Shown piece after piece: positions 27,601 to 43,503 of a DNA stretch of 64,000 nucleotides. Positions within the stretch are counted from its first letter, which is position 1; every line of letters begins with the position of its first letter. Under the pieces are notes generated by a model. It was not told the origin of the DNA, did not search any database, and worked only from the letters and a program-made list of their open reading frames with translations. The DNA is from a plasmid, in sequence record NZ_CP103154.1; one strand, given 5' to 3'. The position numbers and the translations under genes were made by a program.

Positions 27601-28581
27601 TTACACTACCATCCTTTCCCTTATCAACGGTATATTATCCCGTACCAAATTCAGAATCCGGTCATGATAGGCTGATAATTGGTTAGACTTTCCACGACAC
27701 TGGCACACCTCCATCCTGCTAAGTGAAAACTCCACCGTTTCCATGCGCCTTCCATCCACCGTTGCCGACATTATCAACGAATCTTCTCTCTTATAATAGG
27801 CGTTGCTGAATACACAATGATGCAGCAACTTTCCCTCTTTGTAAAAGTCCGAAAGGCTTTCCAATACCCGAACCATAATATTTCCATCCGCAAACGAAAG
27901 ATTAAAGAAACGTGATTTGGCAGCAATATAGTCTTTTTCATCCTTTTCAGAATATTTTTTCTTACATTTCCCCATCACCCAATCATGCGCTTCTTCTACA
28001 TTCAACGGACACAAATAATGAGGATTTCTCGCATCCAATTTATTTTCTATCAGCATATCCACATAGTCCAGCCACAAGTCCGCATCATGTATCACATAGT
28101 CATGTCTTAAACAGATTTTTACATACGTCCAATACTTATCTATACCGTATTTTCTCTCTAAAAATCTCAAGAACAAATTCATTTGCCCTGCCTTATATAA
28201 TATCTCCATCCGATTATCAGTTAATAATGTCATAAAGAAGGAACTCGGACAAATATCATAAAAGGCACCCTTAAATCCATTCCTCGTAAGTTCGGGTATC
28301 ACTTTCATTCTCGGATAGATAACTGCCGGGCAAATATCATAAATACGGTCATGATGCACATTCCGCTTACGCAATTCCAAAGAACTTCCATATATCCATG
28401 CATCGTAATAAAATATAGACATGCCCCGCAGCAAAGACAGCGTTTCTGTCTTGCCCTCTTTATTCATCCAACACTGTACCGCCTCAATTATAAAGTAATT
28501 AGCCGGAGACCCTTTTTCAGCCGGCAGTCCACCATAAAAAAACGGATAACTTGATATTGCTTGTATGTAGTAATCACACAA
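27601..28581 (-). CDS. PcfJ-like protein, C-terminal portion (apparent frameshift with 28488..28847)
   Basis: 326-aa ORF with a PcfJ-like conserved core; overlaps an upstream same-strand ORF by 94 nt. Confidence 0.6.
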   Translation of the reverse strand: MCDYYIQAISSYPFFYGGLPAEKGSPANYFIIEAVQCWMNKEGKTETLSLLRGMSIFYYDAWIYGSSLELRKRNVHHDRIYDICPAVIYPRMKVIPELTRNGFKGAFYDICPSSFFMTLLTDNRMEILYKAGQMNLFLRFLERKYGIDKYWTYVKICLRHDYVIHDADLWLDYVDMLIENKLDARNPHYLCPLNVEEAHDWVMGKCKKKYSEKDEKDYIAAKSRFFNLSFADGNIMVRVLESLSDFYKEGKLLHHCVFSNAYYKREDSLIMSATVDGRRMETVEFSLSRMEVCQCRGKSNQLSAYHDRILNLVRDNIPLIRERMVV

Positions 28582-28847
28582 AAATATTCTTTATATACAG
28601 CCGTCCTTTTCCTGCTATTCTCCAATTTCAGGTTCATACCGCAATGAGGACATTTACAGTTTTTCTTATCTTCCTTATCCCGCCATGTATGCCCACAATC
28701 CAAACAAAAGCAATTCCCCTTTGCATCACGCTTGAAATAATGCACAAAGCAATGTTTATAGGCATAACGCTTTTGAGCCTCTGAAACGGGAGCTAACTTC
28801 CTGCTCCCATTCACGATTTCCATTTGTAATTTTGTCTTGGGTTTCAT
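28488..28847 (-). CDS. zinc-ribbon N-terminal portion of the PcfJ-like protein (likely the same gene, frameshifted)
   Basis: CFCLDCGH...CKCPHCG zinc ribbon; 119 aa; its 3' end overlaps the 5' end of 27601..28581. Confidence 0.5.
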   Translation of the reverse strand: MKPKTKLQMEIVNGSRKLAPVSEAQKRYAYKHCFVHYFKRDAKGNCFCLDCGHTWRDKEDKKNCKCPHCGMNLKLENSRKRTAVYKEYFCVITTYKQYQVIRFFMVDCRLKKGLRLITL

Positions 28848-28848
28848 A

Positions 28849-29259
28849 TCAAAAAAGAGTTAACTGGGTTTGTACTTCGGTGTTGTTCTCACGTTTAGCT
28901 TGTTGACGCTTCTTCAACTTTGCCAATTCTTCCTCCTGCAATTTTTTGATAGCAGCCTCACGAGCCGCTTTCTTTTCTTCCTCTGACAATTCAACATGAT
29001 GATTTACGACTACATTACATTTCAATGGGCTACCCACCTCAATATTATCTTCCTGATAATAGTGCAACGCCATACCAAAAATTTCATCATCACTAAAACC
29101 ACAGCAACCGCTTTTCTTCACTTGGTTTAAAATATAGGTAATGCAATTATCTATATTCTTTGTAGGTTTTTGATAGACTGGAGCAAACAGACTATCCACC
29201 GCTGCCATATTATCAAGGTATGCCTTGATGGTACTTTTAAATTGTTCTGACACTTTCAT
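28849..29259 (-). CDS. PcfK-like protein
   Basis: 136 aa (MKVSEQFKSTIKAYLDN...CITYILNQVKKSGCCGFSDDEIFGMALHYYQEDNIEVG), the usual partner upstream of PcfJ-like genes. Confidence 0.55.
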   Translation of the reverse strand: MKVSEQFKSTIKAYLDNMAAVDSLFAPVYQKPTKNIDNCITYILNQVKKSGCCGFSDDEIFGMALHYYQEDNIEVGSPLKCNVVVNHHVELSEEEKKAAREAAIKKLQEEELAKLKKRQQAKRENNTEVQTQLTLF

Positions 29260-29447
29260 AGTATATCATTTTTAGATTTCATTTCACAATAAGCCAATTT
29301 CACGAGAAACAAGGAGAATAGGCAAATAAGAGCCAACAACGTAACCGACACAACCTTTATCGGACTTGGCGTTATTACCGCTCCGACAAACATAGCCACT
29401 GCACAAAGAGCGATGATGACCGAAAAAACAAATTGAATGATTTGCAT
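29256..29447 (-). CDS. small membrane protein
   Basis: 63 aa, two TM helices; first gene after repeat module copy A. Confidence 0.4.
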   Translation of the reverse strand: MQIIQFVFSVIIALCAVAMFVGAVITPSPIKVVSVTLLALICLFSLFLVKLAYCEMKSKNDIL

Positions 29448-29467
29448 ATACTTCTGCTACTTAGTTT

Positions 29468-30153
29468 GTTAAACTTCTAATTTTATGCTTCAGCTAGATT
29501 TAAAGACCTTTTTTTAAAACCCCTTTCCGGGATGGCCTTTTCTTTCTGCCGACTTTTTTTTTGAGCTTTCATGCCCCATCTGAGTTTATGAGCCTTTTTT
29601 TTACGGCACACAACAATAAGGAAGGAGGGATTAAGAAAAGTTTTGGACGACAAAAAATGTTGGGGACAGCGAAGCCGTCCGGCGTTATTTTTTCGGGACA
29701 AAGGGGCGAAGACCGGAACTCTTTCGTATCCATCCACCGAAATAAATTTGCCGTTCAAAAACAAAGGATCTCAGATGGAGCTATGAAAAAAGCACATTAG
29801 GGGAGGCAGAAAACAAGGAAAAGGGCAGTACGGAAAGTAAAACAAACCATACGGTTTTGCTTGCAAAACCGTATTCCTATCTCCCTGCCACAAGTGACAG
29901 GGGGGGAACGGGTTAGCAACGGACTGCCGGGACAAACGGTAAAAGGAAGGAACTGCAATACGGAAGAAGGAGGTTGTTTCGGCAATGCCGAAGCTCCGGA
30001 TGATGACCATTGCAATCCCGCCCACGTTTGGAACTTCTCTTTTCTGGTTTGCCCATAATCAGCCGCATAGCGGATGACTACGGGCAAACCGGGAATGAGA
30101 ACAGTCATTCCGATGAAGGGGAGGGTGGGGAAGAATACTGCGTGAACGCAAAA
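29468..30153. repeat. ~685-bp conserved noncoding module, copy A; structured-RNA or regulatory candidate
   Basis: Near-identical to 38571-39252 and 41639-42320; internal ORFs are not frame-conserved between copies; many hairpins; its left end lies about 20 nt from the start codon of the 29447 operon. Confidence 0.8.
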
Positions 30154-30159
30154 ACACTC

Positions 30160-30200
30160 TCGGATATGTAGCAAAAAAAAGCGGCACTAGGCCGCTTCAA
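30160..30200 (-). terminator. rho-independent terminator of the ssb gene
   Basis: On the minus strand GCGGCCTAGTGCCGC followed by TTTTTTTT. Confidence 0.6.
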
Positions 30201-31400
30201 TCATTTGCTTGCTTTTTTCTTTTTAGAGACAGCCTTCTGTTTAGGCTGATCCGGTTTTTCTTCTTCTTTTTCCGGAGCCGGATAAAACTTGGTGGCTACC
30301 ATCACAATGCGGTTACGCTTCTCCCCACTTTTAGAATCCGTCCATTCTTCCGGCTTAAAGTAGCCTTCAACGGTTATCAGCTCACCTTTTTTCAATACAT
30401 CGAAGGAATCCAGTGCTTCATTCTTTCTCCAGGCTTCAATCCCCATGAAAGCGGAAACATAAGAGGTTTCTTCACCTGTCTTGTCTGCACGGCTGACCGC
30501 GATAGAAAAGCGTGCTACGCTTGCTGTTTCAAAACTACGGATTTCTGCATCCTTACCGATAAAACCTGTTACTGCGAATGAATTTTCAATCTTTTTCATA
30601 TCTCTGATTTTTTAGAAGTTAATTAATCAATTTTACAGTGCAATAACTGATTGTTGGCTTTGGGGGACACCATGAAAAAAGATATAAATACTCTTTTTAT
30701 GCTGGCCGGAAAAAGGAAGATTTGTAACTTTTTTATTGGTGAAGATGGCAGCAAATAATTCGGGTTAAATACGCTTTTTATGCAAGGCAAAAAAAGGAAG
30801 ATTTCAGACGAATAACAACGTGGTGTTTGTGAATCGTCCCCTTATCCCCGTAAAAGGGGTTAGCAACAATCTATATTTGCAACGGAAAATGATTTGACTT
30901 CCCTAAAAAATGATATGAAAAAGACAAAACTTGAAAATCAGCAACAGGTTTGGAAAGGATGCAAAAAACAACCGGTCAGACAGCAAGCATGGCACATTCC
31001 GAAAATATGGTCAGCCGCCTATCGACACACCGGAAGAAACCTCTGCAATTCCTTTTAAAAAAATGAAGCCGAAGAATGAAGCATACAATATTCCACGTAT
31101 CGAAAAAAGTGACTGCACGATAAAATGAAAGGCTGCAACGGAAGAACAGACTTGCGGATTCTGCGGGGAGAACATAACCATACAGGCATACAGCCACTAC
31201 AACTGTTTCCGGAAAAAGAAGATTATACAACCGGAAAAACAGAAAGGCATCCACTCGGAGAAAAGCAAGCAAACGATTGAAGCGGACTGCCGATTTAGCG
31301 GCGAAATATCCGACTACCTATATACAGCCCTAAAAGGCTGGGGCATATGGGTAAGCAACAGACTGCCGGGCAAATAAAAGGAGAGTGGCATAGCCGCCGG
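30181..31400. repeat. segmental duplication, copy 1: ssb plus its ~700-bp upstream leader; copy 2 at 33379-34590
   Basis: Long collinear identity between 30181-31400 and 33379-34590, including the terminator, the ssb gene body (decayed in copy 2) and the upstream noncoding region. Confidence 0.8.
30201..30599 (-). CDS. ssb: single-stranded DNA-binding protein-like (OB fold), plasmid/ICE type
   Basis: 132 aa; FAVTGFIGKDAEIRSFETASVARFSIAVSR...ITVEGYFKPEEWTDSKSGEKRNRIVMVATKF; Lys-rich tail. Confidence 0.7.
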   Translation of the reverse strand: MKKIENSFAVTGFIGKDAEIRSFETASVARFSIAVSRADKTGEETSYVSAFMGIEAWRKNEALDSFDVLKKGELITVEGYFKPEEWTDSKSGEKRNRIVMVATKFYPAPEKEEEKPDQPKQKAVSKKKKASK

Positions 31401-31563
31401 AAAGAGGTTGTCTCGATGTGGCCGAAGCTCCGAAAGCAGACCGGATATGCCTCTCTCCTTTGCCTTCCCCATTCCTGGATTTCACACAATCACGGAGCCT
31501 GCGAGTGACTATGAGAAATCCTGAAACGGGGACAGTCACTCCGCTGAAAGGGTGGGTGGGAAA
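31348..31563. ncRNA. variant of the structured 3' module of the repeat family (candidate structured RNA or ssDNA element)
   Basis: Shares the 5' motif GGGTAAGCAACAGACTGCCGGG and the 3' motif ...CAGTCACTCCGCTGAAAGGGTGGGTGGGAAA with the 685-bp module; compensatory base changes keep two hairpins. Confidence 0.45.
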
Positions 31564-31665
31564 CATGTGACTTTCTCCAAAATAACAAATAGGGGTATAA
31601 AGATCTCAAAAGAAAAGAAAGCCGTTCCAGAAAAGACTGGAGCAACTATCACCATCTACTGTTCT

Positions 31666-32943
31666 TTAAGTTAATTGCAGCAAATCCAAATCATCAGTGA
31701 CCAATCCATCCAATACATGTTGGATTTTATCAAATATAGCCTTATCTATGCCATACGTGGCGCATAACGATTGAAATTTGCTTACAGCATCGAACACCTG
31801 TAATATCTTCTTTTCGGGCTCCTCTACAAAATCCTCGGCAAAGTTGACGAAATCACTTGTAGTCAAGGCAGACCTTTTGCCCATCACGCCCATCGAATGA
31901 ATGTGTGCTGAAGAATTTTCCCATGTATTTGCCGTGAACATTACATCATATGCAGGTGATAAACGCCATACCCCTGCCTTATCCATGATAAACGATATGT
32001 TCTTATTATGATCATCGGATATACCTGCGACATAATTAAATACCATTCTGATAAATATCTGATCTTTGTCTTCCTGGGGAAGTTTCAGAGTCTCTGCTAT
32101 CCAACACAGCTTCATATAATCATCTGCACCCGGCATAATGGCCGCAAGGGTCTGACTAAAGAGCTTTTCTCCATTCTTACGATCAAATCTTTCCGTTACG
32201 AAATGATTTCTTCCATCAATTTCTTTCAGGAAGCATGGCATCATGTTGATTCCCGCCGCCTTTGCCATTTCGCTATATACCATTTCTATCTCTGTGGTAG
32301 GAGAGTCATCTGCTTCTTTAAATTTGATGATATACTGCTTAAAATTTTCAGGCAAATCCACCTGGCCGGAACGAAACTCTTCCGTTTCGAGATTATAGGC
32401 AATCACTGCCTTCGGGCGCATGCCACCGGCAGAAGTTCCAAGATATATCAACTTTTTCATCGTGAGGCTATCCTCCGGTGATATGACAGCAGCATCTCGA
32501 TCATTATATATTTTAGAAGCCAAAGTTGCCAATGATGACATATTTACTGACTCATGGATGGCATCATCATTAAATTCCGGTTCAAATTCCAATGCTCCCA
32601 TAGCCCTCTTGCCAATATAAGAGAGCTTCAATAGAGGCAATGATTCCGTAACCTTTATATTATTATCCGTGAGCCATTGGTCAAATAGGGAAGCCCCCCA
32701 TTTGTCAGGAAGCGCATCTGCAAGAAATTCCGGAAGCCCTTGATATAATTTATCTTTATTCCCATAGAAAGACGCAAACAAAGGGGTTCTCTTAGGGTGT
32801 GTGGAAGGGCATATATCATAATCTTGTTTCCTATATTCATCCGTAAATTGGAATACAGAACAATGCTTTTCAAAGTCCCAATTCAATTTGCCAATGCAAG
32901 TCCCCCACAGATATACATTCACTATAATCGGCTCTTTCTTCAT
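31666..32943 (-). CDS. hipA: HipA-family serine/threonine kinase toxin
   Basis: 425 aa; GTSAGGMRPK phosphate-binding loop and DDHNKNISF catalytic motif; start overlaps the HTH gene stop (ATGA). Confidence 0.8.
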   Translation of the reverse strand: MKKEPIIVNVYLWGTCIGKLNWDFEKHCSVFQFTDEYRKQDYDICPSTHPKRTPLFASFYGNKDKLYQGLPEFLADALPDKWGASLFDQWLTDNNIKVTESLPLLKLSYIGKRAMGALEFEPEFNDDAIHESVNMSSLATLASKIYNDRDAAVISPEDSLTMKKLIYLGTSAGGMRPKAVIAYNLETEEFRSGQVDLPENFKQYIIKFKEADDSPTTEIEMVYSEMAKAAGINMMPCFLKEIDGRNHFVTERFDRKNGEKLFSQTLAAIMPGADDYMKLCWIAETLKLPQEDKDQIFIRMVFNYVAGISDDHNKNISFIMDKAGVWRLSPAYDVMFTANTWENSSAHIHSMGVMGKRSALTTSDFVNFAEDFVEEPEKKILQVFDAVSKFQSLCATYGIDKAIFDKIQHVLDGLVTDDLDLLQLT

Positions 32944-33278
32944 ACCATCTTACGTTTACCGTTAATTCTTTGTATTCTTTTACCTGTTTTTTCATTGATT
33001 AGGAAAGGGGAGTCTGGAAGTTCCGGAACCAAACCGACAACGCCTTCAAGAGTTCCACTTATACGCAAAATCTTAAGCAATGTACTTAGGGCAATATCAC
33101 TTACTTTACAAGATTCTATTCTCTTAATAGTAACGATAGATACTCCTGCCTTATCCGCAAATTCTTGCTGGGAAAAACAGCAGCTAAGTCTTATAGACTT
33201 AACTCTCTTGCAGATTTCCTTTACAATACATTCATCTGAAAATTCGTATATTGTATATGTATCATATAATCTTTTCAT
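32940..33278 (-). CDS. hipB: XRE-family HTH protein, HipB-like antitoxin
   Basis: 112 aa; HTH segment LSCCFSQQEFADKAGVSIVTIKRIES; immediately upstream of and overlapping hipA. Confidence 0.7.
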   Translation of the reverse strand: MKRLYDTYTIYEFSDECIVKEICKRVKSIRLSCCFSQQEFADKAGVSIVTIKRIESCKVSDIALSTLLKILRISGTLEGVVGLVPELPDSPFLINEKTGKRIQRINGKRKMV

Positions 33279-33378
33279 AGAAAAACATATTTAGGTATCA
33301 TTTTTGATACAAAAATACCGATAAATCTGAAAATCACCAAATTAAGAAACACTTTTTTTATAATCTTCTGCCGCATTA

Positions 33379-34590
33379 GCAAACGATTGAAGCGACCTTG
33401 TGCCGCTTCAATCGTTTGATTGCTTTTTCTTTTTAGTCCGGGGGTTCTTATTTTTCCGGAGTCGGGTAGAACTTAGTAGCTACCATCACAATGCGGTTAC
33501 GTTTCTCCCCACTTTTAGAATCCGTCCATTCTTCCGGCTTAAAGTAGCCTTCAACGGTAATCAGTACATCTTTTTGCAGTATCCAAAAAGCATAGCGGTC
33601 TTCCATCTTACTCTAGGCTTCAACTTTCATAACAGAGGAAACAAATGTTTTTTCTTCATTTATCTTGCCTATGCGACTGACCACAATAGAGAAGTGTGCA
33701 ACCTTTACTATTTCGAATAAATGGATTTCTGCATCCCTACAAATCCTGCCTGTTACTGCGAATGAATTTTCAATCTTTTTCATATCTCTGATTTTTTAGA
33801 AGTTAATTAATCAATTTTACAGTGCAATAACTGATTGTTGGCTTTGGGGGACACCATGAAAAAGATATAAATACTCTTTTTATGCTGGCCGGAAAAAGGA
33901 AGATTTGTAACTTTTTTATTGGTGAAGATGGCAACGAATAATTCGGGTTAAATACGCTTTTTGTGCAAGGCAAAAAAGGAAGATTTCAGACGAATAACAA
34001 CGTGGTGTTTGTGAATCGTCCCCTTATCCCCGTAAAAGGGGTTAGCAACAATCTATATTTGCAACGGAAAATGATTTGACTTCCCTAAAAAATGATATGA
34101 AAAAGACAAAACTTGAAAATCAGTAACAGGTTTGGAAAGGATGCAAAAAACAACCGGTTAGACAGCAAGCATGGCACATCCCGAAAAGATGGTCAGCCGC
34201 CTATCGACACACCGGAAGAAACATCTGCAATTCCTTTTAAAAAAATGAAGCCGAAGAATGAAGCATATCATATTCCACGTATCGAAAAAAGTGACTGCAC
34301 GATAAAATGAAAAGCTGCAACGGAAGAACTGACTTGCGGATTCTGCGGGAGAACATAACCACACAGGCATACAGCCACTACACCTGTTTCCAATAAAAGA
34401 AGATTACACCACCGGAAAAGCAGAAAGGCTCCACTCGGAGAAAAGCAAGCAAACGATTGAAGCGGACTGCCGATTTGGCAGCGAAATATCCAACTACCTA
34501 TCTACAGCCCTAAAAGGCTAGGACATATGGGTAAGCAACAGACTGCCGGGCAGTCACTCCGCTGAAAGGGTGGGTGGGAAAAAACTAAGT
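33379..34590. repeat. segmental duplication, copy 2 (see 30181-31400)
   Basis: Collinear with copy 1; carries the ssb pseudogene and a deletion variant of the structured module at 34508-34580. Confidence 0.8.
33420..33790 (-). pseudogene. degenerate second copy of the ssb gene
   Basis: DNA homologous to 30201..30599 but with indels and stops; no intact ORF. Confidence 0.6.
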
Positions 34591-34654
34591 GGACGCAAAA
34601 AACAACCTTACCATTGGGGGATAAACTTCCCCCTATTTTCACTTCACATATTCT

Positions 34655-35137
34655 TTACCCCACTTCAATTGATTCAACAAACTTCAACAACAAAGCGACT
34701 GTTACCGTATGAAATGAAAGCTGATTGAACAACTTATGCGCTTTCAGCATCTCAATAGCGGCTTCAGCCGTAACAACTCTCTGTTCATAAAGCCGAATTG
34801 TCGCATATAACTGGTCATTTGCGACAGGCCCCATTATTAGGTCATAGTCACCGTTTTCTCTTCCTCTGCGGTTGTTGACAACAAACTCCAGCCATTCTTT
34901 TGTTGCACCCATAAACCGAAGAACCGGATATTCCCTATCAAGAATATCATCGGGAACTTCATAAACAGAGACGATTGCTTTTTCGCTCTGTTCCCTGTTC
35001 TTCTTCAACAAAGCCCATTTTTTTGCTTGTTCAAAGTTGGTTGTCGTATAAAATCCCTTCCCAAAGTCCGTAGCCTTCCGTCCTTTCTGTATATTAGGGC
35101 GTTTCACGGTAACTGTAGATCCATGAAATAGTCTCAT
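34655..35137 (-). CDS. DUF3990-like protein (second member of a DUF3791/DUF3990 pair)
   Basis: MRLFHGSTVTVKRPNI...DFGKGFYTT N-terminus typical of this family; overlaps the upstream ORF by 4 nt. Confidence 0.5.
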   Translation of the reverse strand: MRLFHGSTVTVKRPNIQKGRKATDFGKGFYTTTNFEQAKKWALLKKNREQSEKAIVSVYEVPDDILDREYPVLRFMGATKEWLEFVVNNRRGRENGDYDLIMGPVANDQLYATIRLYEQRVVTAEAAIEMLKAHKLFNQLSFHTVTVALLLKFVESIEVG

Positions 35138-35583
35138 TTTCTTTTATTGATATAAGTCGTTATAGTATCTAATATATATTCGGGGTCTTGGGTATGAAGC
35201 ATTTCAAAAGTCTCATCCAAAAAATCAAAAACCCCATAGTCCGAAAACAACAACAAGGTTTCTTCCGCACTTTGTTTCTTTTCCTCCCTATAATTCTCAA
35301 TGCAGAACATCTTGAAAAGCAGGATCTTCGTGTCACCGTTATACCGTCGTTTTTCTTCTGTTTTTTCCTTCTCCAATGTTTCATAAAGCGACAATGTACT
35401 TGAATACCATAACTTGGTACTCTTATCCAGCAAAGATTTATACAACTTGGAAGAATATATATAATACAGTGCATCGCCTAAAGGCAATGCCTTTTTCTTC
35501 ATGACCAGTTCTACCAGCTCTCTCATCACGAATGGGAGCATGGTTGAGTCAAGTTCTCCTTGATTTTTATGAGTAATTTCCAT
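35134..35583 (-). CDS. DUF3791-like protein (partner of the DUF3990-like gene)
   Basis: 149 aa, gene pair with overlapping stop/start. Confidence 0.45.
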   Translation of the reverse strand: MEITHKNQGELDSTMLPFVMRELVELVMKKKALPLGDALYYIYSSKLYKSLLDKSTKLWYSSTLSLYETLEKEKTEEKRRYNGDTKILLFKMFCIENYREEKKQSAEETLLLFSDYGVFDFLDETFEMLHTQDPEYILDTITTYINKRK

Positions 35584-35879
35584 ATTCTTGTTGTTATTAC
35601 TTTAGCATATTTTCGAAAACACCTTCTTCACAGTTCTTTATACACACCTGACACTCGGCCACCACTTCTCTTAATATTCGGGCACATTCTTCATTCGAAT
35701 GCCCTTGCAGTAATTCATAGGCATATCGCATCAGTTCATTAGCTTCCATTGTTTCCATCCTTATCAATAATATTCAAGTTCATCATTATTTTCTGCAACG
35801 ACTCCATATTTGGAGTTCCTAACCAACACACACCTATGCAAAAGGTCATATTGTTCTCTGTATCTGAAAAACGCATATT

Positions 35880-37230
35880 GTTTTACCTTTTACAAACATT
35901 GTTGTCCCATTAAAATCTAAAAGAGTTCTTTGAAATATTTGAAATTTAGTTAGTTACAGCGATTTTCCGAGCGAACGGACTTGAATTTGTAGCTTTGCAT
36001 CAGATTAATCCGATGGCATATGTTCCAAGACAAATACGTTTTCGCTCAATTGGCTTCATTTCTGAATCGAAGTAAGTTTAACCGCATAGTCACCAAGTAT
36101 GATGGTGATAAATATGTGAAGCACTTCACCTGCTGGAATCAACTACTTGCTTTGATGTTTGGTCAACTTTCTAATCGTGAAAGTCTGCGAGATTTGATAG
36201 TTGCTCTTGAAGCTCATCATTCCAAATGTTATCATTTAGGAATGGGTAAAAATGTATCAAAGTCATCGCTGGCAAGAGCAAATCAAGATAGAGACTATCA
36301 CATCTTTGAAGAATATGCTTACTACCTGGTTAGCGAAGCACGACAAAAGTGTGCTAATCATATTTTCAAACTTGGCGGTAACGTTTATGCTTTCGATTCG
36401 ACTACTATTGACCTGTGCCTTTCAGTCTTTTGGTGGGCAAAATTCCGCAAAAAGAAAGGTGGTATCAAAGTGCATACATTATATGATGTGGAAACACAGA
36501 TTCCTGCATTCTTTCATATCACGGAAGCATCCGTACACGATTCTAAAGTTATGATTGAAATTCCTTATGAACCAAGCTCTTATTACATCTTTGACCGCGG
36601 TTATAACAACTTCAAAATACTGTATAAAATTCATCAAATTGAAGCCTACTTTGTTGTCAGAGCAAAAAAGAATCTCGGGTACAAATCCATCCAATGGAAA
36701 CGTAGGCTGCCTAAGAATGTGCTTTCAGACGCAAGTGTATTTCTGACAGGATTCTATCCTAAACAATATTATCCAGAGCCACTTAGACTGGTTAAATATT
36801 GGGATGAAGAACAAGAACGAGAATTTACATTCATAACCAATGCGATGCATATATCTGCGCTTCAAGTTGCTGAACTTTATAAAAATCGCTGGCAGGTAGA
36901 GCTGTTTTTCAAATGGCTCAAGCAGCACCTTAAAATCAAAAGATTTTGGGGAACTACAGAGAATGCTGTTCGAATACAGATATATGCTGCTATATGCGCT
37001 TACTGTTTGGTGGCAATCATTCAACACGATATGCAACTGAACAGAAGTACATATGAAGTGTTACAAATACTGAGCATCTCATTGACTGATAAGACTCATC
37101 TGAGAGACCTCTTTGATAAAACTAAATTTCAAAATGACAAAGAACGATTCGGACCAAATGGGCCAAGTTTATTTAATTTTTAATTCGTCCCAATTTTAAT
37201 GGGACACTAATGTTTTACAAAGGTAAAACA
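35880..37230 (+). mobile_element. IS4-family insertion sequence (~1.35 kb)
   Basis: Imperfect ~37-bp terminal inverted repeats (left GTTTTACCTTTTACAAACATTGTTGTCCCATTAAAAT; right end is its reverse complement with three mismatches) bracket a DDE transposase gene. Confidence 0.8.
36020..37183 (+). CDS. IS4-family DDE transposase
   Basis: 387 aa; YAFDSTTIDLC and IFDRGY Asp motifs and NRWQVELFFKWLKQ Glu region typical of the IS4/DDE_Tnp_1 family. Confidence 0.85.
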   Translation: MFQDKYVFAQLASFLNRSKFNRIVTKYDGDKYVKHFTCWNQLLALMFGQLSNRESLRDLIVALEAHHSKCYHLGMGKNVSKSSLARANQDRDYHIFEEYAYYLVSEARQKCANHIFKLGGNVYAFDSTTIDLCLSVFWWAKFRKKKGGIKVHTLYDVETQIPAFFHITEASVHDSKVMIEIPYEPSSYYIFDRGYNNFKILYKIHQIEAYFVVRAKKNLGYKSIQWKRRLPKNVLSDASVFLTGFYPKQYYPEPLRLVKYWDEEQEREFTFITNAMHISALQVAELYKNRWQVELFFKWLKQHLKIKRFWGTTENAVRIQIYAAICAYCLVAIIQHDMQLNRSTYEVLQILSISLTDKTHLRDLFDKTKFQNDKERFGPNGPSLFNF

Positions 37231-37376
37231 ATTAAGTAAAATTCATCTATCATTGCTTTTCATATTTATTGTGTCTTTCTCTTTTGCATCGGAAGTATTA
37301 GCACTTACAGCAACCAGACAGTATGACATCGCCACGTTTGATCATACCGCTGGAAAACAACGATATACAATCTGAA

Positions 37377-38009
37377 TCAAAACAGATTGTATATCACCAA
37401 TTTCTTTTTTTGTGCCTTGTTAAACGTATAAGAAGTTCCTCCGGCAGATTTTCCATCCCAATAGGCAATCAGCCTACAGGCGTGTGAAATCATGTAATCA
37501 TTACGGTGGGCATAGCATTGGGCATAATAATATTCGGATAGAACTACCACCTTGTCGGCTTGGCGCAAAATATCAGCATACCTCTGTTTGTCCTCTTTGT
37601 TGAAATACACATCTTGCCCGACATAAGGAACAACCGCCACCAAAACCATATCGGGATATTGTTTCCTTTGTTCAAGTACGGTATGAGCAGCCATCATGTC
37701 AAATCCAACCGCACAACCAATATAGAAAAAACGGATTCCATTCTCATAGCAGAAACGTACCTCTTCATTCAACGATACGGACAAAGCATATTTATTTGTT
37801 CGTATCGTTCTATGACCGGTAAAAGCAACGGACATCATTTTCATCCATTTATCACGTGCCTTTCTACATATATCCAACGAACCTGCCGAAGTTTCATACA
37901 CCATTCCATTCACCTCATAACGATAAGTGAACCAAGTAGTATCTCCAAAGATATCCTTCTGCTTCTCTATATAACTCTCTTTTTCTTTCATCTTATAACA
38001 TACGGACAA
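37377..38009 (-). CDS. SLOG-superfamily protein (DprA/YpsA/DUF1273-like Rossmann domain)
   Basis: VAFTGHRT, IGCAVGFDMMAAHTVLE and HRNDYMISHACRLIAYWDGKSAGGTSYT motifs match the SLOG (Smf/DprA-LOG) pattern; 210 aa. Confidence 0.6.
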   Translation of the reverse strand: MSVCYKMKEKESYIEKQKDIFGDTTWFTYRYEVNGMVYETSAGSLDICRKARDKWMKMMSVAFTGHRTIRTNKYALSVSLNEEVRFCYENGIRFFYIGCAVGFDMMAAHTVLEQRKQYPDMVLVAVVPYVGQDVYFNKEDKQRYADILRQADKVVVLSEYYYAQCYAHRNDYMISHACRLIAYWDGKSAGGTSYTFNKAQKKKLVIYNLF

Positions 38010-38559
38010 CTGTTTTACCTAAAAAGAAACCTCCCAAAACCTCACCTCCTATTTTTTCCAACTGACATGCGAAACGAGCATACGAAAACCCTTTTGTTAA
38101 AATATCGTCAAATACCAAGATTTTCTTACCCCGAAAAAAGTCCTTGTCAAATTCTATCACTTGTACTTTTTGAAGCGACTTGCTGTCAAATTTCTCGTGA
38201 ATAGCCAAACGATCTCCACTGACACGTATATGTTCATACGCATTGATAGCACCTGAAAACTTACACACAGCCGAAGCAAACCCCTTATAACGAAGTTCAT
38301 TCTTATCAGCGGAAGAAGCCGGAACACAAGCAAAAACAATATTCTTAACATCATCACCAAAAACTTGATGTAACTTATTCGCTATCATCCAAGCTATATT
38401 CAAATAAGCTTTTCCATCCTTAAAACTCCATATCATCTTACGAATTTGCCATTCTCTTTCCGTTGCCTGCCGATATTGCATAGGAAGATACTCAAAGAAA
38501 GAAAACATCATCTTATGCCATTGTCTGTCTAAACTAGGATATTTACTCTGATGTGCCAT
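37993..38559 (-). CDS. phosphoribosyltransferase-fold protein (ComF-like PRTase)
   Basis: C-terminal PRPP-binding-like motif KKILVFDDILTKGFSYARFACQLEKIGGEV; 188 aa; overlaps the SLOG gene by 17 nt. Confidence 0.6.
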   Translation of the reverse strand: MAHQSKYPSLDRQWHKMMFSFFEYLPMQYRQATEREWQIRKMIWSFKDGKAYLNIAWMIANKLHQVFGDDVKNIVFACVPASSADKNELRYKGFASAVCKFSGAINAYEHIRVSGDRLAIHEKFDSKSLQKVQVIEFDKDFFRGKKILVFDDILTKGFSYARFACQLEKIGGEVLGGFFLGKTVVRML

Positions 38560-38570
38560 AGTCTTTTATC

Positions 38571-39252
38571 TATTAAAATTAAACTTATGCTTCAGCTAGA
38601 TTTAAAGACCTTTTTTTAAACCCCTTTCCGGGATGGCCTTTTCTTTCTGCCGACTTTTTTTTTGAGCTTTCATGCCCCATCTGAGTTTATGAGCCTTTTT
38701 TTTACGGCACGCATCAATAAGGAAGGAGGGATTAAGAAAAGTTTTGGACGACAAAAAATGTTGGGGACAGCGAAGCCGTCCGGCGTTATTTTTTTCGGGA
38801 CAAAGGGCGAAGACCGGAACTCTTTCGTATCCATCCACCGAAATAAATTTGCCGTTCAAAAACAAAGGATCTCAGATGGAGCTATGAAAAAAGCACATTA
38901 GGGGAGGCAGAAAACAAGGAAAAGGGCAGTACGGAAAGTAAAACAAGCCATACGGTTTTGCAAGCAAAACCATACTCCTATCTCCCTGCCACAAGTGACA
39001 GGGGGGAACGGGTTAGCAACGGACTGCCGGGACAAACGGTAAAAGGAAGGGACTGCAATACGGAAGAAGGAGGTTGTTTCGGCAATGCCGAAGCTCCGGA
39101 TGATGACCATTGCAATCCCGCCCACGTTTGGAACTTCTCTTTTCCGGTTTACCCATAATCAGCCGCATAGCGGATGATTACGGGTAAACCGGGAATGAGA
39201 ACAGTCATTCCGATGAAGGGGAGGGTGGGAAAGAATACTGCGTGAACGCAAA
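38571..39252. repeat. ~685-bp conserved noncoding module, copy B
   Basis: Near-identical to copies A and C; its left end abuts the start codon (38559) of the PRTase-SLOG operon. Confidence 0.8.
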
Positions 39253-39370
39253 TTAATGGGATTACCAGTAACTCCAAGCGTTTTTTGCTACTTTTTTGGG
39301 GTGCTTGCCAAAAAGTAGCGGACAGCAAAATACCCTCCCTTCCCTAATCCAAAAGAAGGGAGAATGTGCT

Positions 39371-39724
39371 TCATTGAAGGTATATAGGTTCCGTTCCCTG
39401 ATTATAACAATACATAGTGTTATTTCTGAAACCATCAAAGCATATATGAAAATCATCGAAATCCTGTTCCGTGGCCAAACGAACCTTATCACTCAACAAA
39501 ACCATGCATTGTTTATTGACAGATGTAGCCAAAGAGGTAGTACGTCCCGGCTTTATCTCCAATGCCACCACATAAGAAGTCCTTCGTGGATAGATATACC
39601 CAATAATTTCCTCATTGAGTACAACCAAACGAATAACATCTTCATTCAAAACGGGAATATTATTAATTTTGCCCATCATTGTTATAATATAAATCAGTTT
39701 ATAATCATTAAAATACAATATCAT
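39371..39724 (-). CDS. hypothetical protein
   Basis: 117-aa ORF in a minus-strand gene string. Confidence 0.4.
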   Translation of the reverse strand: MILYFNDYKLIYIITMMGKINNIPVLNEDVIRLVVLNEEIIGYIYPRRTSYVVALEIKPGRTTSLATSVNKQCMVLLSDKVRLATEQDFDDFHICFDGFRNNTMYCYNQGTEPIYLQ

Positions 39725-40047
39725 TACAAATGATACCTATAATTTTTATAGGTAAACTTTTCCACCGAGACCACCTCATAAAGATAGTCTTCATGGCAAG
39801 AAGCCATTATACAGTTCTCACATTCAAGAATAGGATTTATAACTACACGGAATTTAATAGTGCCGTCCACCAGAACAAACTCCACCCGATTAAAGAACCC
39901 TTGTAGAGAATGCCCTTCCTTATCCATCAGACGCACTACTTCACCTGTAAAAACAGCCAATTCCTTAGCCTGCCATTTCGCTTTACGCAAACAACTGTTC
40001 GCCGCTTTGACGTTCTCATTCACCTCTTTTGTTCTTATTGCTTTCAT
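39724..40047 (-). CDS. hypothetical protein
   Basis: 107-aa ORF, tightly packed with neighbours. Confidence 0.45.
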   Translation of the reverse strand: MKAIRTKEVNENVKAANSCLRKAKWQAKELAVFTGEVVRLMDKEGHSLQGFFNRVEFVLVDGTIKFRVVINPILECENCIMASCHEDYLYEVVSVEKFTYKNYRYHL

Positions 40048-40076
40048 ACCAAAATCCTTTTTACATATTTATCTTG

Positions 40077-40802
40077 TCAAAAATCAAAAGTCAGCTGCGT
40101 AGCCCTTGCGTTGCTCTGAATCGACCTCTTCAATTCAGAATTATCCTCCATTGCATTTTCAAGTTTCCTAATAAAAGAAGTGTCACCTGCTTCCGTTATC
40201 TTTAAAATAGGCAACCATACTCCGGCTATCAGCTGTAAATCTATATGATAACTTCTCCAATGCTGCATTGTCAATGTATTCATCCATGCGACTTCACCGG
40301 GTACGCTATTCATCATCAGATTGACAACGGTCATCTTTACACAAATCAAATCTATATCCGAGCCATAACAAAAAAGCCTTCCTCCATCATTCTCTTCCGC
40401 ACATTTTTTTACAGCGGAAAGTAGCATCCTGCCGGAACCACAGCACGAATCACAGACCGACTGTTTAGGTTTCAGCCTATTTCCCCCCATACATGCCATC
40501 AAATCAGCAACGTGTATCGGGGTAAAGAACTGTCCGTTATTCCCATGACTGACACACTCCATGAACATATCTCCCAAGACATCGCAAAATCCTTCCGAAT
40601 ATTCAGACACCCTATAAAACATTTGAACAAAAAGTTCCATTTCATATGGCTTATATCTTTTTTCCACTCTACGATAATCCTCCGCCAACATCCCGACAGA
40701 CAAATAGTAAAGACAAACATCCAAAAAATCCCGAAAGGCTTCTTCATATCCCCGACTGAAAGCAAGCTTTTCATAAAGTTTCATTATCTCCTTTGGTATC
40801 AT
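40077..40802 (-). CDS. N6-adenine DNA methyltransferase-like protein, short form lacking the catalytic NPPF/Y motif
   Basis: GQFFTPIHVADLMA (motif X), VCDSCCGSGRMLL (motif I, SAM binding) and CYGSDIDLICVKMTVVNL are present; no (N/D)PP(F/Y/W) motif IV; only 241 aa. Confidence 0.6.
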   Translation of the reverse strand: MIPKEIMKLYEKLAFSRGYEEAFRDFLDVCLYYLSVGMLAEDYRRVEKRYKPYEMELFVQMFYRVSEYSEGFCDVLGDMFMECVSHGNNGQFFTPIHVADLMACMGGNRLKPKQSVCDSCCGSGRMLLSAVKKCAEENDGGRLFCYGSDIDLICVKMTVVNLMMNSVPGEVAWMNTLTMQHWRSYHIDLQLIAGVWLPILKITEAGDTSFIRKLENAMEDNSELKRSIQSNARATQLTFDF

Positions 40803-40817
40803 ACTTTTCTGACTTCA

Positions 40818-41081
40818 TTATTCACAACATTCTATATTCCTTGTGCCATAGATTTTATCAAAAGCCGCTTTTATCTCCGAGCGATATTTACAGTCCTTCT
40901 CAAAACAAAGTTGTTTTGTCCAAAAATCGAAATCAAAACCATCGGTATTATCAATCGTTACAGAAACATAATCAGTCATACCACTCTGACATACAACCGT
41001 ATGCCGATTTACACAAAAGTGGTCATTTAAAGCAGTTTCTTTTCGGGTAATGCGTTCTACCATCTTATCTATCCACTTCAT
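40818..41081 (-). CDS. hypothetical protein
   Basis: 87-aa Cys-containing ORF. Confidence 0.4.
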   Translation of the reverse strand: MKWIDKMVERITRKETALNDHFCVNRHTVVCQSGMTDYVSVTIDNTDGFDFDFWTKQLCFEKDCKYRSEIKAAFDKIYGTRNIECCE

Positions 41082-41137
41082 ACTTATAATATTTTATGTA
41101 ATTGCCCCATTCCAAGAGGCAGTTACGGTTATACTCA

Positions 41138-41617
41138 TTAAAAATCGTTCTCGTTCAAAAACAGCACATCGCCTTTCATCACCATCCAATTAATCTCACT
41201 CAGATGATAGCCACAATGCCCACTCAAAAAAATCTCAATCTCTTCAGTGGTCTGCAATCTCCTGTCTGGGCTTATCACCGCAACATTACCGGAATTACAA
41301 TCCAATACAGCCAGTTTCTCATAAGCCCACTCACCAAACTGGCAGAACTCGATAAAATTGGTATAGGTTATCCGTATGCTATTGTTTGCATCAAATTCAA
41401 GGGGTGACTTTGTAATGAATGAACCTGCATGATTCACCACCACAGAGGGGCTAATCTCTGCCAATGAAGATAAGCTGTCATCCCATCTAATCTCATAAAG
41501 GAAAAATCCTTTTGGCAATGAATTGCGGTCTATACGATAACTGGAAAAAAGACCGTCTATCGTTTCATTAATAACTAACTGTTCATAATCTCCTTCTAAA
41601 TAGTGTACTCGTGACAT
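41138..41617 (-). CDS. hypothetical protein
   Basis: 159-aa ORF; first gene after repeat module copy C. Confidence 0.5.
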   Translation of the reverse strand: MSRVHYLEGDYEQLVINETIDGLFSSYRIDRNSLPKGFFLYEIRWDDSLSSLAEISPSVVVNHAGSFITKSPLEFDANNSIRITYTNFIEFCQFGEWAYEKLAVLDCNSGNVAVISPDRRLQTTEEIEIFLSGHCGYHLSEINWMVMKGDVLFLNENDF

Positions 41618-41638
41618 AACTCGTTGTTTTTTGGGATT

Positions 41639-42320
41639 GTTAAACTTCTAATTTTATGCTTCAGCTAGATTTAAAGACCTTTTTTTAAAACCCCTTTCCG
41701 GGATGGCCTTTTCTTTCTGCCGACTTTTTTTTTGAGCTTTCATGCCCCATCTGAGTTTATGAGCCTTTTTTTACGGCACACAACAATAAGGAAGGAGGGA
41801 TTAAGAAAAGTTTTGGACGACAAAAAATGTTGGGGACAGCGAAGCCGTCCGGCGTTATTTTTTTCGGGACAAAGGGCGAAGACCGGAACTCTTTCGTATC
41901 CATCCACCGAAATAAATTTGCCGTTCAAAAACAAAGGGTCTCAGATGGGGCTATGAAAAACGCACATTAAGGGAGGCAGAAAACTAGGAAAAGGGCAGTA
42001 CGGAAAGTAAAACAAGCCATACGGTTTTGCCTGCAAAACCGTATTCCTATCTCCCTGCCACAAGTGGCAGGGGGAACGGGTTAGCAACGGACTGCCGGGA
42101 CAAACGGTAAAAGGACGGGGCTGCAATACGGAAGAAGGAGGTTGTTTCGGCAATGCCGAAGCTCCGGATGATGACCATTGCAATCCCGCCCACGTTTGGA
42201 ACTTCTCTTTTCCGGTTTGCCCATAATCAGCCGCATAGCGGATGACTACGGGTAAACCGGAAATGAGAACAGTCATTCCGATGAAGGGGAGGGTGGGAAA
42301 GAATACTGCGTGAACGCAAA
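41639..42320. repeat. ~685-bp conserved noncoding module, copy C
   Basis: Near-identical to copies A and B; flanked by a minus-strand operon on the left and a plus-strand operon on the right; a TAnnTTTG-like -7 box (TACTTTTG) lies just beyond its right end. Confidence 0.8.
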
Positions 42321-42423
42321 AACACAGTATGTCATCTTAAAACAATATCTTTAAAAAGTTTTTCAGAAGAAATGCTTACCAATATCCTAATAATTATTAC
42401 TTTTGATAACATAATACAACGAT

Positions 42424-42678
42424 ATGGAAAAGAAAAAGATTACAATAGAGGTAGAACCAGCTACAGCCGTAGCTACCGTCGGTTTATTGCGTGGGATATT
42501 TCCCAGTATCATCGAACAACTGGAAAGGCAAGCCGCAACAAACGGCAGCCCCTTAAAATTCAATAAAGTAGAAAATATGCAAGAAGTATTGGATGAGATT
42601 TATGAAAAGTGCATTGCCGAAACGAACCTCCGGGAGTTTGCCCAGGCGCACTTAAATAGTGACGGATTACCTAACTGA
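42424..42678 (+). CDS. hypothetical protein
   Basis: 84-aa ORF, first of three co-oriented small genes. Confidence 0.45.
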   Translation: MEKKKITIEVEPATAVATVGLLRGIFPSIIEQLERQAATNGSPLKFNKVENMQEVLDEIYEKCIAETNLREFAQAHLNSDGLPN

Positions 42679-42723
42679 TACAGAAATACGGAATCTGCCA
42701 GCCATCCTTATTCCAAATAACAA

Positions 42724-43050
42724 ATGGTACAGAATTACACACCTGTCATGTGGGATGACAAAGCATTTGCCTTTGTCCCCTACGAAGCATTCAGTGATTT
42801 GCCACATTATCCCAAAGAAAAATGTGAGCAAATTTGCAAAGAGCTGAACAGCCTTATAAGACTATGTACTTATAGGCCGAAAAAGGAAGATATTTATTTT
42901 CATCCGGTAAGTTATGTACGTCGTTCCGGAGGTTTCATAGTTACGGATAATCAGGCATCCTTTGAGAAATGCCCCTATCCTGCTTGCGCAGACCGTCATA
43001 GCTGCCAAAAAATATGTGATTTGATGAACCGTATCATTGAAGAGTCTTAA
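42724..43050 (+). CDS. hypothetical Cys-rich protein
   Basis: 108-aa ORF. Confidence 0.45.
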   Translation: MVQNYTPVMWDDKAFAFVPYEAFSDLPHYPKEKCEQICKELNSLIRLCTYRPKKEDIYFHPVSYVRRSGGFIVTDNQASFEKCPYPACADRHSCQKICDLMNRIIEES

Positions 43051-43064
43051 TTATATAAAATACC

Positions 43065-43442
43065 ATGGAACATCCAAACTCCAAATGCAGAATAGCACAA
43101 GCTGAATATTTAAGTCGGCTACCTGAAGAAGAACGGGAAAATAAGGCCAGAGATATTAGAATCGGAAACGCCAGCTATATTTACCACCAACAAGCGGTTC
43201 CAATCCAAGAAAACAGATTGATAATGTATTATAAAGAGTGGTTGGAAGGTCTTCCTCCCAACATTTCACGCCATATGAGAATGCTTGGATTTGAAGCATG
43301 TAAGACAATGATTCCGTTTACGAGATATGTGAACGAAAGAAACGATATTGGTATGCGTGACTGGATGCAAGAGCATCTTTCACCGAGTGACTTCAACTAT
43401 TGGCAGGAACTTTCGAAAAAAGCAGGTTCGCCAACATTTTAA
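43065..43442 (+). CDS. hypothetical protein
   Basis: 125-aa ORF. Confidence 0.45.
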   Translation: MEHPNSKCRIAQAEYLSRLPEEERENKARDIRIGNASYIYHQQAVPIQENRLIMYYKEWLEGLPPNISRHMRMLGFEACKTMIPFTRYVNERNDIGMRDWMQEHLSPSDFNYWQELSKKAGSPTF

Positions 43443-43503
43443 TCCCATCCCGTTCAATACGCTGCCTGAAGAATAAAAGGTGCGTATTAAACGAGAATAT
43501 TTT

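Follow-up and report, generated by a model that had tools for sequence, protein, structure and literature searches.

A three-way-junction domain beside long plus-strand hairpins on a Bacteroidales conjugative plasmid: a possible accessory element of single-stranded DNA

Plasmids of the pMMCAT type are among the most widespread mobile elements of human gut Bacteroidales. Within a 64,000-nucleotide (nt) stretch of plasmid record NZ_CP103154.1 (the window, meaning the whole stretch analyzed), the noncoding element at 31348-31563, whose domain spans roughly 190 nt, is, judged by alignment, a diverged paralogue of the 3' domain of a 685-base-pair (bp) module that occurs there in three copies. Variant, module and a third, more distant class fold on the plus strand into the same three-way junction, which always lies immediately 3' of a very long plus-strand hairpin. 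We tentatively propose that this domain is an accessory fold of the strand transferred during conjugation, standing beside a single-stranded DNA (ssDNA) promoter of the Frpo type and acting as a priming site or a replication roadblock, although we give this proposal somewhat less than an even chance.

A three-way junction common to three sequence classes

The variant aligns to the module 3' domain from end to end, sharing its terminal blocks and an internal 43-nt island. A sequence-only reading of the window had reported that the two elements share a 5' and a 3' motif, and every string it quoted was found where it was said to lie. The variant carries GGGTAAGCAAC at 31349-31359 and CAGTCACTCC...GGGTGGGTGGGAAA at 31533-31563, while the module has its 5' motif GGGTTAGCAAC at 29910, 39010 and 42078 and its G-rich tail at 30115, 39215 and 42283. 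The sequence GGGTWAGCAAC, with one mismatch allowed, occurs nine times in the window against 1.33 expected, a count reached in none of 100 shuffles, and the G-rich tail motif occurs five times against 0.04 expected. The claim that the ~150 nt between the motifs differ was too broad, because the island, GAGGTTGT...GCCGAAGCTCCG, is 74% identical. A more distant class was found on plasmid NZ_CP103198 of P. vulgatus (locus L237), whose two modules are ~59% identical to those of pMMCAT. The module, the variant and the L237 form are referred to below as classes A, B and C.

A single member of each class was folded, with the closing helix either forced or left free, and both ways the architecture was the same: a three-way junction of a closing helix (P1), an arm of ~100 nt (H1) and a hairpin of ~67 nt (H2). 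P1 is GACTG/CAGTC in classes A and B and CGGCTGTA/TACAGCCG in class C; H1 measures 98, 96 and 104 nt and H2 67, 67 and 69 nt in A, B and C, respectively, so that across the classes H1 stays within 96-104 nt and H2 within 67-69 nt. In all three, H1 begins 3-6 nt past P1, and H2 begins 1-4 nt after H1 and ends exactly at the 3' strand of P1. The longer pairing GACTGCC/GGCAGTC that had been proposed between the two motifs holds in a deletion copy only; elsewhere, the closing helix common to all classes has 5 bp, GACTG/CAGTC. The classes differ in how stable the junction is. In class C it is the unconstrained minimum-energy structure with RNA and DNA parameters alike, whereas it lies above the minimum by 0.4 kcal (DNA) or 2.6 kcal (RNA) in class B and by 1.8 kcal (DNA) or 7.3 kcal (RNA) in class A. 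The pair probability of P1 is correspondingly 0.87-0.99 in C, 0.45 (DNA) or 0.02 (RNA) in B and ~0 in A, so that P1 of the module rests on comparison rather than on energy. An uncompensated A·C pair was present in P1 of four module variants.

Plain MAFFT alignment followed by RNAalifold failed across the classes, as the arms could not be aligned by sequence, and the alignment was therefore rebuilt around the helix boundaries. With this structure-guided alignment, RNAalifold returned 34 consensus pairs, and 15 of these show double changes across the three deep classes, a count that is generous given that the alignment was built around the structure. Among the double changes are the A-T to G-C exchange in P1, those at four of the five basal pairs of H1 and, in a small apical hairpin within H1, those at two of three pairs (TCGGC/GCCGA versus AAGGC/GCCTT). 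This is covariation of a conserved structure of the kind sought in a noncoding RNA (ncRNA) gene, seen here across three deep classes and in a structure-guided alignment. Three blocks are unpaired in every class, namely GCAAC immediately 5' of P1, which reads GCAAT in C, and two blocks of H1, GGTTGT and AGCTCCG. GCAAC is complementary to GTTGT, which suggests a candidate pseudoknot. The loops of the small hairpins are mostly triloops (AAT, ATA, TAT), and triloops are more usual in DNA palindromes than in RNA.

The idea of a folded domain closed by a long-range helix holds up, and class C strengthens it by forming the same junction with a changed P1 and preserved arm lengths; P1 of the module is its weak point. 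The hairpin preceding the 5' motif did keep its structure while its sequence diverged, reading CCCTGCC/GGCAGGG in the module, CAGCC/GGCTG in the variant and GCGAAG/CTTCGC in L237. The hairpin preceding the 3' motif fared differently. It had been described as compensatory (GGAATGA/TCATTCC in the module, GAGTGACT/AGTCACTC in the variant), and it exists, yet it is not part of the consensus fold: its 5' partners are non-homologous, lying 6 nt upstream in one case and 25 nt in the other, it competes with H2 and P1, and L237 has no equivalent. For the non-homologous partners and the missing class C equivalent, it was not counted as covariation. Two further helices were considered and rejected. A helix closing the whole module, between its pyrimidine-rich left end and the G-rich tail, fails because in L241b and L151b the left end differs while the tail is the same; an outer helix CAACGGA/TCCGATG shows no covariation and is weak in the variant (two A·C pairs) and in L237.

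Folding energy does not decide the strand, since both strands fold better than shuffled sequence: the z-scores are -4.3 (module) and -2.5 (variant) for the plus strand as RNA and -5.0 and -4.2 for the minus strand. The wobble pairs are more informative. Paired positions were tallied in 33 unique module-type 3' domains, where G·T fills 90 cells and A·C 12. All the common polymorphisms exchange Watson-Crick for wobble pairs on the plus strand (TG18/TA15, TG21/CG6/TA4, GC7/GT11/AT11, GT25/AT7), and population variants of H2 follow CG-TG-TA and GC-GT-AT paths; viewed on the minus strand, the same wobble polymorphisms would be A·C mismatches. By this excess of G·T over A·C, a sequence-level argument, the plus strand is the one that folds. 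As the folded plus strand is the template of all flanking genes, a leader of minus-strand mRNA becomes unlikely. With the strand settled in this way, the molecule is less clear, ssDNA being a tentative choice and RNA a more doubtful one.

One copy has lost the core of the domain. As the sequence-only reading had noted, the second copy of a segmental duplication of 1.1 kb (30261-31372 and 33445-34552) has lost all of the sequence that elsewhere separates GACTGCCGGG from CAGTC, and the remnant reads GGGTAAGCAAC-A-GACTG-CCGGG-CAGTC...GGGTGGGTGGG. The deletion endpoints lie at the base of the junction, between the short repeats CCGGGCA and CGGGGACA, a pattern expected of slippage across a folded single strand. 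The accompanying ssb is broken into open reading frames (ORFs) at 33448-33606 and 33613-33783 (52 and 56 amino acids, aa). These features make the deletion copy look like the product of a loss mediated by structure or microhomology, and not like a minimal form that still functions. The second ssb copy (33448-33783) is 78% identical to the first and is a pseudogene. A plus-strand terminator at 34616-34633, 35 nt past the deletion copy, faces the end of the DUF3990 gene.

Long hairpins, promoter boxes and neighboring genes

The long hairpin that precedes the junction is a giant imperfect hairpin in the module and the inverted repeat of ssb and a pseudo-ssb in the variant (Table 1). The giant hairpin is known in four sequence classes, and RNAalifold across ten copies gave 60 consensus pairs, 14 of them compensatory between the four classes. 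Counted from the pair table, its wobble is also biased to the plus strand, with ~56 G·U cells against 15 A·C. A diverged giant hairpin in the window has no 3' domain, and a class represented by L241 and L151 joins a different 5' domain to an almost unchanged 3' domain; the 5' and 3' domains can therefore occur apart from each other. In all four classes a box of the form nAnnTTTGCCG occupies one fixed, partly unpaired spot at the top of the 3' arm, as TAAATTTG at 29743, 38844 and 41913, as TACCTTTG in L237 and as AACCTTTG in the other two classes; the Bacteroides-type -7 consensus used here was TAnnTTTG.

The position of the modules relative to genes is also fixed. The left edge of each lies 21-32 nt from a minus-strand start codon (29447, 38559, 41617), and the same abutment is seen in L237 (8496, ~12955) and at 47965, while the flanks left of the three modules differ. 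The abutting genes belong to ssb, PcfK, methylase or SLOG operons, and upstream of them the minus strand carries no consensus TAnnTTTG box. Three minus-strand terminator-like hairpins in series are predicted from the sequence to insulate the module-abutting genes. The extreme left end of every module class (29478-29505 and equivalents), TTCAGCTAGATTTAAAGACCTTTTTTT, is nearly invariant. Read on the minus strand it lies 25-55 nt before the start codons, where it may serve the genes as a common leader for translation initiation; read on the plus strand it includes a -7 box close to the consensus, TAGATTTA.

In the variant, the 3' domain starts ~30 nt past the end of the ssb/pseudo-ssb repeat, whose arms are 78% complementary where alignable. 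The observation that the 5' motif also follows a hairpin in the "ssb leader" proved correct, with GGGTTAGCAAC standing behind a CCCC/GGGG hairpin at 30857 and 34039. By its sequence, however, this leader is no leader but an inverted, degenerate ssb copy. The motif (30857-30867) ends four bases before a consensus -7 box, TATATTTG (30872-30879; also at 34054), which is on the pseudo-copy arm, in an internal loop of the repeat. At the matching position the functional ssb side reads AGTTATTG and has no consensus box. The ssb repeat of L237 is 60% identical overall and has the same geometry, with the box TAACTTTG and again none on the side of the real gene. Its arms match each other at 76% but the arms of other plasmids at only 64-70%. 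Wobble in the ssb repeat is contradictory between lineages and was not used to assign the strand.

Comparable hairpins occur elsewhere and lend independent support to hairpins of the template strand. Upstream of PcfK, further elements of Bacteroidales (Muribaculaceae, Porphyromonadaceae and others) have a near-perfect, non-homologous hairpin of ~320 nt (L005 9456-9781, L021 ~9460-9760, and L001, L002, L003, L008, L010, L013, L020 and L035). These have DNA folding energies of -0.17 to -0.19 kcal per nt and 124 consensus pairs, and on the template strand of eight unique copies G·U accounts for 118 cells and A·C for 5. They gave no Rfam match. A TAnnTTTG box within 700 nt of the PcfK hairpins was absent from both strands in 24 of 28 loci, and none of the 28 had one on the sense strand.

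Candidate functions

The interpretation that we favor, tentatively, is an element acting on the single strand that enters the recipient. The minus-strand relaxase operon is found left of an AT-rich gap, and relaxase genes are typically the last to enter the recipient (PMC11541004), from which we infer that plus is the transferred strand, with a putative origin of transfer (oriT) and nic site. On that strand the long hairpin would rebuild a double-stranded promoter. The 3'-arm box runs from loop to base and, exposed in a bubble, would serve as the non-template strand, and RNA polymerase would copy the 5' arm leftwards into the minus-strand establishment genes: a 63-aa ORF with PcfK and PcfJ, the phosphoribosyltransferase with SLOG, LPD28 with the N6-methylase, and ssb. 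The predicted start would fall ~37 nt before the ssb ATG and ~150 nt before the ATG for the modules. Synthesis of the complementary strand comes from the 3' side and so reaches the G-rich tail and the junction before the promoter hairpin. Junction and tail would then either prime the complementary strand or block its synthesis, keeping the promoter single-stranded for longer. A still more specific version, which we regard as speculative, is that Bacteroidales conjugative plasmids and integrative and conjugative elements carry their own single-strand establishment cassette, in which a hairpin-borne -7 box fires promoterless genes and is coupled to a new junction domain. The inverted ssb pseudo-copy might then supply the non-template strand of the promoter, the junction might time or prime conversion to double-stranded DNA, and 31348-31563 might be one diverged copy of this timing or priming domain; each of these steps shares the same doubt.

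Several observations weigh against a single-strand element. P1 is thermodynamically weak in the module class, and the junction itself contains no promoter boxes, its priming or roadblock role being read from its position alone. Beside the -7 box no -33 element (TTTG) is evident, and the box begins with AA instead of TA in two of the four classes. The wobble of the ssb repeat in the pMMCAT group is reversed, with 11 G·T against 31 A·C. The minus-strand gene block begins ~21 kb from the putative oriT with tra genes in between, which means that it is not a classical leading region. Other features have the flavor of RNA: at several pairs G·T is the most frequent state, as is more usual in RNA helices than in those of DNA; the conserved unpaired blocks, with their possible GCAAC/GTTGT pseudoknot, look RNA-like; and the plus-strand -7 boxes (29743, 30872) and the terminator at 34616-34633 would equally yield a plus-strand RNA.

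These last features lead to the alternative of a plus-strand ncRNA transcribed from ordinary duplex plasmid DNA, with the domain as its structured core, which we consider possible yet doubtful. In the module such an RNA might be ~400-650 nt long and start at TAAATTTG (29743) or TAGATTTA (29495); in the variant the domain might form the 3' part of an RNA running from TATATTTG (30872) through the pseudo-ssb. Its role might be regulatory, for example antisense to or insulating the convergent minus-strand genes, or binding a plasmid protein. It accords with plus being the folded strand and with the plus-strand RNA z-scores (-4.3 and -2.5), with consensus -7 boxes upstream on that strand in both contexts and retained in L237, with the terminator 35 nt past the deletion copy, with the frequency of G·U, often the major allele, and with the mutual complementarity of the unpaired GCAAC and GGTTGT that suggests a pseudoknot. 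The terminator, however, is absent after the three modules and the full variant, the other possible start box, TAGATTTA, is without the G that ends the consensus, no Rfam family matches, and the loops are triloops rather than stable RNA tetraloops. Moreover, an RNA starting at the 29743 box cannot hold the 5' arm of the giant hairpin, although that arm covaries with the 3' arm; only a start at the imperfect TAGATTTA would take it in. An ncRNA also leaves unexplained why modules abut the start codons of promoterless minus-strand genes and why the -7 box was lost by functional ssb but kept by the pseudo-copy. The ssDNA and RNA readings do not exclude each other, since in duplex DNA the same box points rightwards through the junction.

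The remaining explanations are less probable. The element could be a functionless repeat, that is, a promoter or leader cassette spread by recombination or segmental duplication or in the manner of a miniature inverted-repeat transposable element, maintained by gene conversion and hitch-hiking, with the variants as stages of decay. We hold this to be improbable. Its restriction to one plasmid lineage (35 plasmid records, and none of 37 PcfK loci of other Bacteroidota), the 94-97% identity of copies within a plasmid, the deletion copy in a duplicate with a broken ssb, and three contigs that break at or beside the motif (L040, L203, L232), suggesting recombination or assembly junctions, would fit such a history, as would the co-evolution of the ssb-repeat arms within a plasmid, which gene conversion would also give. 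Nonetheless, classes only 55-65% identical keep arm lengths, geometry and pairs through double changes, and H2 polymorphism runs along Watson-Crick-wobble-Watson-Crick paths that avoid A·C on one strand, as neutral decay would not; terminal inverted repeats and target-site duplications are both absent. A structured element of minus-strand mRNA, leader or intergenic, such as a long 5' untranslated region controlling the translation or stability of ssb and other genes, is very unlikely. The genes are on the minus strand and have a consensus minus-strand promoter upstream at 33317, that strand folds strongly (z of -5.0 and -4.2), the outer helix of the variant, CAGCGGA/UCUGUUG, needs minus-strand G·U pairs, and wobbles in the pMMCAT-group ssb arms favor the minus strand by 31 to 11. 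The asymmetry is opposite in H2 (90 versus 12), in the giant hairpin (~56 versus 15) and in the PcfK hairpins (118 versus 5), and three minus-strand terminator-like hairpins lie within or beside the module. That the region simply encodes small proteins, the hypothetical ORFs annotated by the Prokaryotic Genome Annotation Pipeline, is scarcely credible. The pipeline calls a 53-aa ORF on the plus strand of the variant (31347-31508), and module copy 1 has one of ~103 aa on the minus strand, but the strand differs between the two classes, the ATG of the variant corresponds to CGG in the module, where the frame reaches TAA after 10 codons, the minus-strand ORF spans 125, 75 and 111 aa across the three module copies, and variation tracks base pairing instead of codons. 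The protein-coding reading was rejected because the ORFs are not conserved.

Plasmid context, distribution and known systems

The best match of the 685-bp module is the 98-kb conjugative plasmid pMMCAT_BxylCL11T00-2 (99.9% identity), and 35 plasmid records from Bacteroides, Parabacteroides and Phocaeicola match it. Genes of the window, assigned by Pfam scans, include a conjugation apparatus (Table 1). The 188-aa protein beside the SLOG protein, called a phosphoribosyltransferase in RefSeq, had no Pfam match. The minus-strand block also contains hipBA-like and mazEF-like toxin-antitoxin pairs (31666-33278; 44621-45200), and an IS4-family transposase (36020-37183) is inserted within it. A term search of the pMMCAT preprint found no mention of these repeats, of an oriT or of ssb.

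Table 1. Positions of the junction domain, its copies and the surrounding features in the window
Feature	Position	Strand	Remarks
Hairpin 5' of variant domain, CAGCC-CTAAAA-GGCTG	31325-31340	+	Read from sequence; equivalents in module (29881-29904) and L237
Conserved 5' block of variant, GGGTAAGCAAC	31349-31359	+	GCAAC unpaired, complementary to loop GTTGT; pseudoknot candidate
P1 5' strand of variant, GACTG	31361-31365	+	Pairs with 31533-31537; GGCTG/CAGCC in L237
Arm H1 of variant, 96 nt	31369-31464	+	Conserved unpaired GGTTGT 31406-31411, AGCTCCG 31426-31432
Arm H2 of variant, 67-nt hairpin	31466-31532	+	Abuts P1 3' strand; sequence differs between classes
P1 3' strand of variant, CAGTC	31533-31537	+	
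G-rich tail of variant, GAAAGGGTGGGTGGGAAA	31546-31563	+	Conserved in L237 as GGGGTGGTGGGAG
Deletion copy	34529-34581	+	5' block, GACTG-CCGGG-CAGTC stub, G-rich tail; H1 and H2 lost; ~28 metagenome instances
Module copies 1, 2, 3	29478-30155, 38580-39257, 41649-42325		94% column-by-column identity
Junction of module copy 1	29922-30106	+	P1 29922-29926/30102-30106, H1 29933-30030, H2 30035-30101
Junctions of module copies 2 and 3	~39022-39206, ~42090-42274	+	
Module tail	30115-30150	+	G-rich block, then TGCG-TGAA-CGCA hairpin
Giant imperfect hairpin, ~315 nt, module 5' domain	29523-29837	+	-7 box TAAATTTG at 29743-29750, internal loop of 3' arm
Giant hairpin copies	~38625-38938, ~41694-42007	+	
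Diverged giant hairpin without 3' domain	47985-48300	+	Abuts start of minus-strand gene 47567-47965
Perfect 11-bp hairpin between giant hairpin and 3' domain	29849-29874		Terminator-like on minus strand
Terminator-like hairpins	30198-30178, 30151-30138, 29874-29849	-	In series between ssb and next gene
ssb	30201-30599	-	
Degenerate inverted pseudo-ssb	~30900-31290	+	Terminator included
Inverted repeat of ssb and pseudo-ssb, ~1.1 kb	30185-31292		Duplicate at 33400-34472
MobA/VirD2 relaxase (PF03432)	4280-5680	-	Pfam
NikA-like protein	5677-6078	-	Pfam
AT-rich gap	6078-6362		Adjoins relaxase and NikA-like genes
ParA-like gene, TraG-family ATPase, ArdC-like protein, coupling protein, Toprim protein	to ~27.5 kb	+	Pfam
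PcfJ, PcfK, SSB, HipA with helix-turn-helix protein, DUF3990, DUF3791	after ~27.5 kb	-	Minus-strand block
SLOG protein, N6-methylase, LPD28, MazF	after ~27.5 kb	-	Minus-strand block

In human-gut metagenomes the 5' motif was found 133 times in more than 104 contigs: 66 instances were of module type, ~37 of full-variant type and ~28 of deletion type, with no other type. The scan thus yielded population variation within classes already known, not deep covariation. Copies in many metagenome contigs and in 35 plasmid records show that the elements are not assembly artefacts; as far as sequence records tell, they are real and stable, and the family is narrow and limited to pMMCAT-like plasmids. Neither motif was present in 37 PcfK-bearing loci from other Bacteroidota, and nhmmer found no match in the same loci. 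In viral contigs, two of three matches to the 5' motif were coincidences in coding sequence, and the tail motif alone gave 92 chance matches. At the gathering score, Rfam 15 (including STAXI, RF01728, and Bacteroides-1/Bacteroidales-1) had no match in the whole window, and at E<5 positions 28500-43500 gave only chance matches resembling microRNA hairpins. The element family is previously undescribed and has no Rfam entry.

Further observations concern related contigs. Behind its 3' domain, L237 (8944-9775, the P. vulgatus plasmid) has two more tandem units of ~280 nt with unrelated interiors, each terminating in the same tail, GGTGGTGGGAG...CTGCGTGTACGCAAG; the tail with its small hairpin is therefore the most widely reused piece. 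Three contigs switch to unrelated sequence near these elements: L203 breaks directly after GGGCAGTC (384-392), L232 after GGGACAAACG (~75-80), and in L040 an integrase-like gene is fused to the middle of the pseudo-ssb (~5510-5530). These could be assembly chimeras or recombination break points at a folded region.

Single-strand origins offer a general parallel. The ssoA and ssoU origins of rolling-circle plasmids and the G4- and phiX-type ssi are ssDNA folds of 150-300 nt with several hairpins and short conserved unpaired blocks (RSB and CS-6 in sso); they are strand-specific and needed after conjugative entry. Unlike the sso plasmids, the plasmid studied here is apparently not a rolling-circle replicon. 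STAXI (RF01728; PMC2864571) is likewise a repeated structured motif near ssb, anti-restriction and integrase genes, and its authors left open whether ssDNA or RNA is the active form (PMC2864571). It differs in being enterobacterial and a small tandem pseudoknot with UUCG loops, and it has no match in the window.

The Frpo/ssi family of ssDNA promoters, reportedly described by Masai and Arai in 1997, provides the closest comparison. On IncF and IncI plasmids, dispersed Frpo/ssi hairpins in the transferred strand rebuild -35 and -10 boxes and, ahead of complementary-strand synthesis, drive the operons of ssb, psiB, ardA and methylases, while remaining inactive in the duplex (PMC11541004; PMC12672017); several operons are driven by such dispersed repeats (PMC12672017). 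The elements described here resemble them as dispersed repeats several hundred nt long on a conjugative plasmid, with several classes per plasmid, as long, imperfect template-strand hairpins at ssb, methylase and anti-defence genes, in having putative promoter boxes on one arm, and in standing directly upstream of operons without ordinary promoters. The long template-strand hairpin is provided by the 5' domain and the ssb repeat, not by the three-way junction. The gene content of the window (ssb, an orphan methylase, toxin-antitoxin genes and polyvalent-protein domains) also resembles the leading-region islands of PMC11541004. The host, in contrast, belongs to the Bacteroidota and the box is of the -7 TAnnTTTG type, so that sequence similarity is not expected, and none was seen in Rfam; the pMMCAT block lies ~21 kb from the putative oriT instead of adjoining it; and the junction with its G-rich tail, 3' of the hairpin, is an extra without a described counterpart. 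On the F plasmid, an ssDNA promoter hairpin, ssp2, holds up synthesis of the complementary strand and thereby prolongs the single-stranded state (bioRxiv 10.64898/2026.01.09.698686). Here, too, a stable ssDNA structure would be met by the polymerase before the early genes, although in F the roadblock is the promoter hairpin itself, whereas here a separate junction would be the first obstacle. Overall, the elements could plausibly be leading-region-type single-strand elements in a new phylum with a new accessory domain, at a likelihood that stops short of even.

To date, enterobacterial IncF and IncI plasmids are the only ones for which single-strand promoters and early "zygotic" expression have been demonstrated, and a literature search for Frpo together with Bacteroid- returned no paper on the subject. 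If the structure instead acts as RNA, it would represent a large structured plasmid ncRNA family without an Rfam entry, present at 4-7 places per plasmid. If the modules are the Bacteroidota counterpart of the enterobacterial promoters, they would account for the activation of ssb, the orphan methylase, the toxin-antitoxin genes and PcfJ/PcfK on entry. Establishment regions of Bacteroidota could then be annotated by a signature independent of sequence, namely a template-strand hairpin with wobble bias in front of promoterless genes, and the junction domain would be a new structural part of the establishment machinery.

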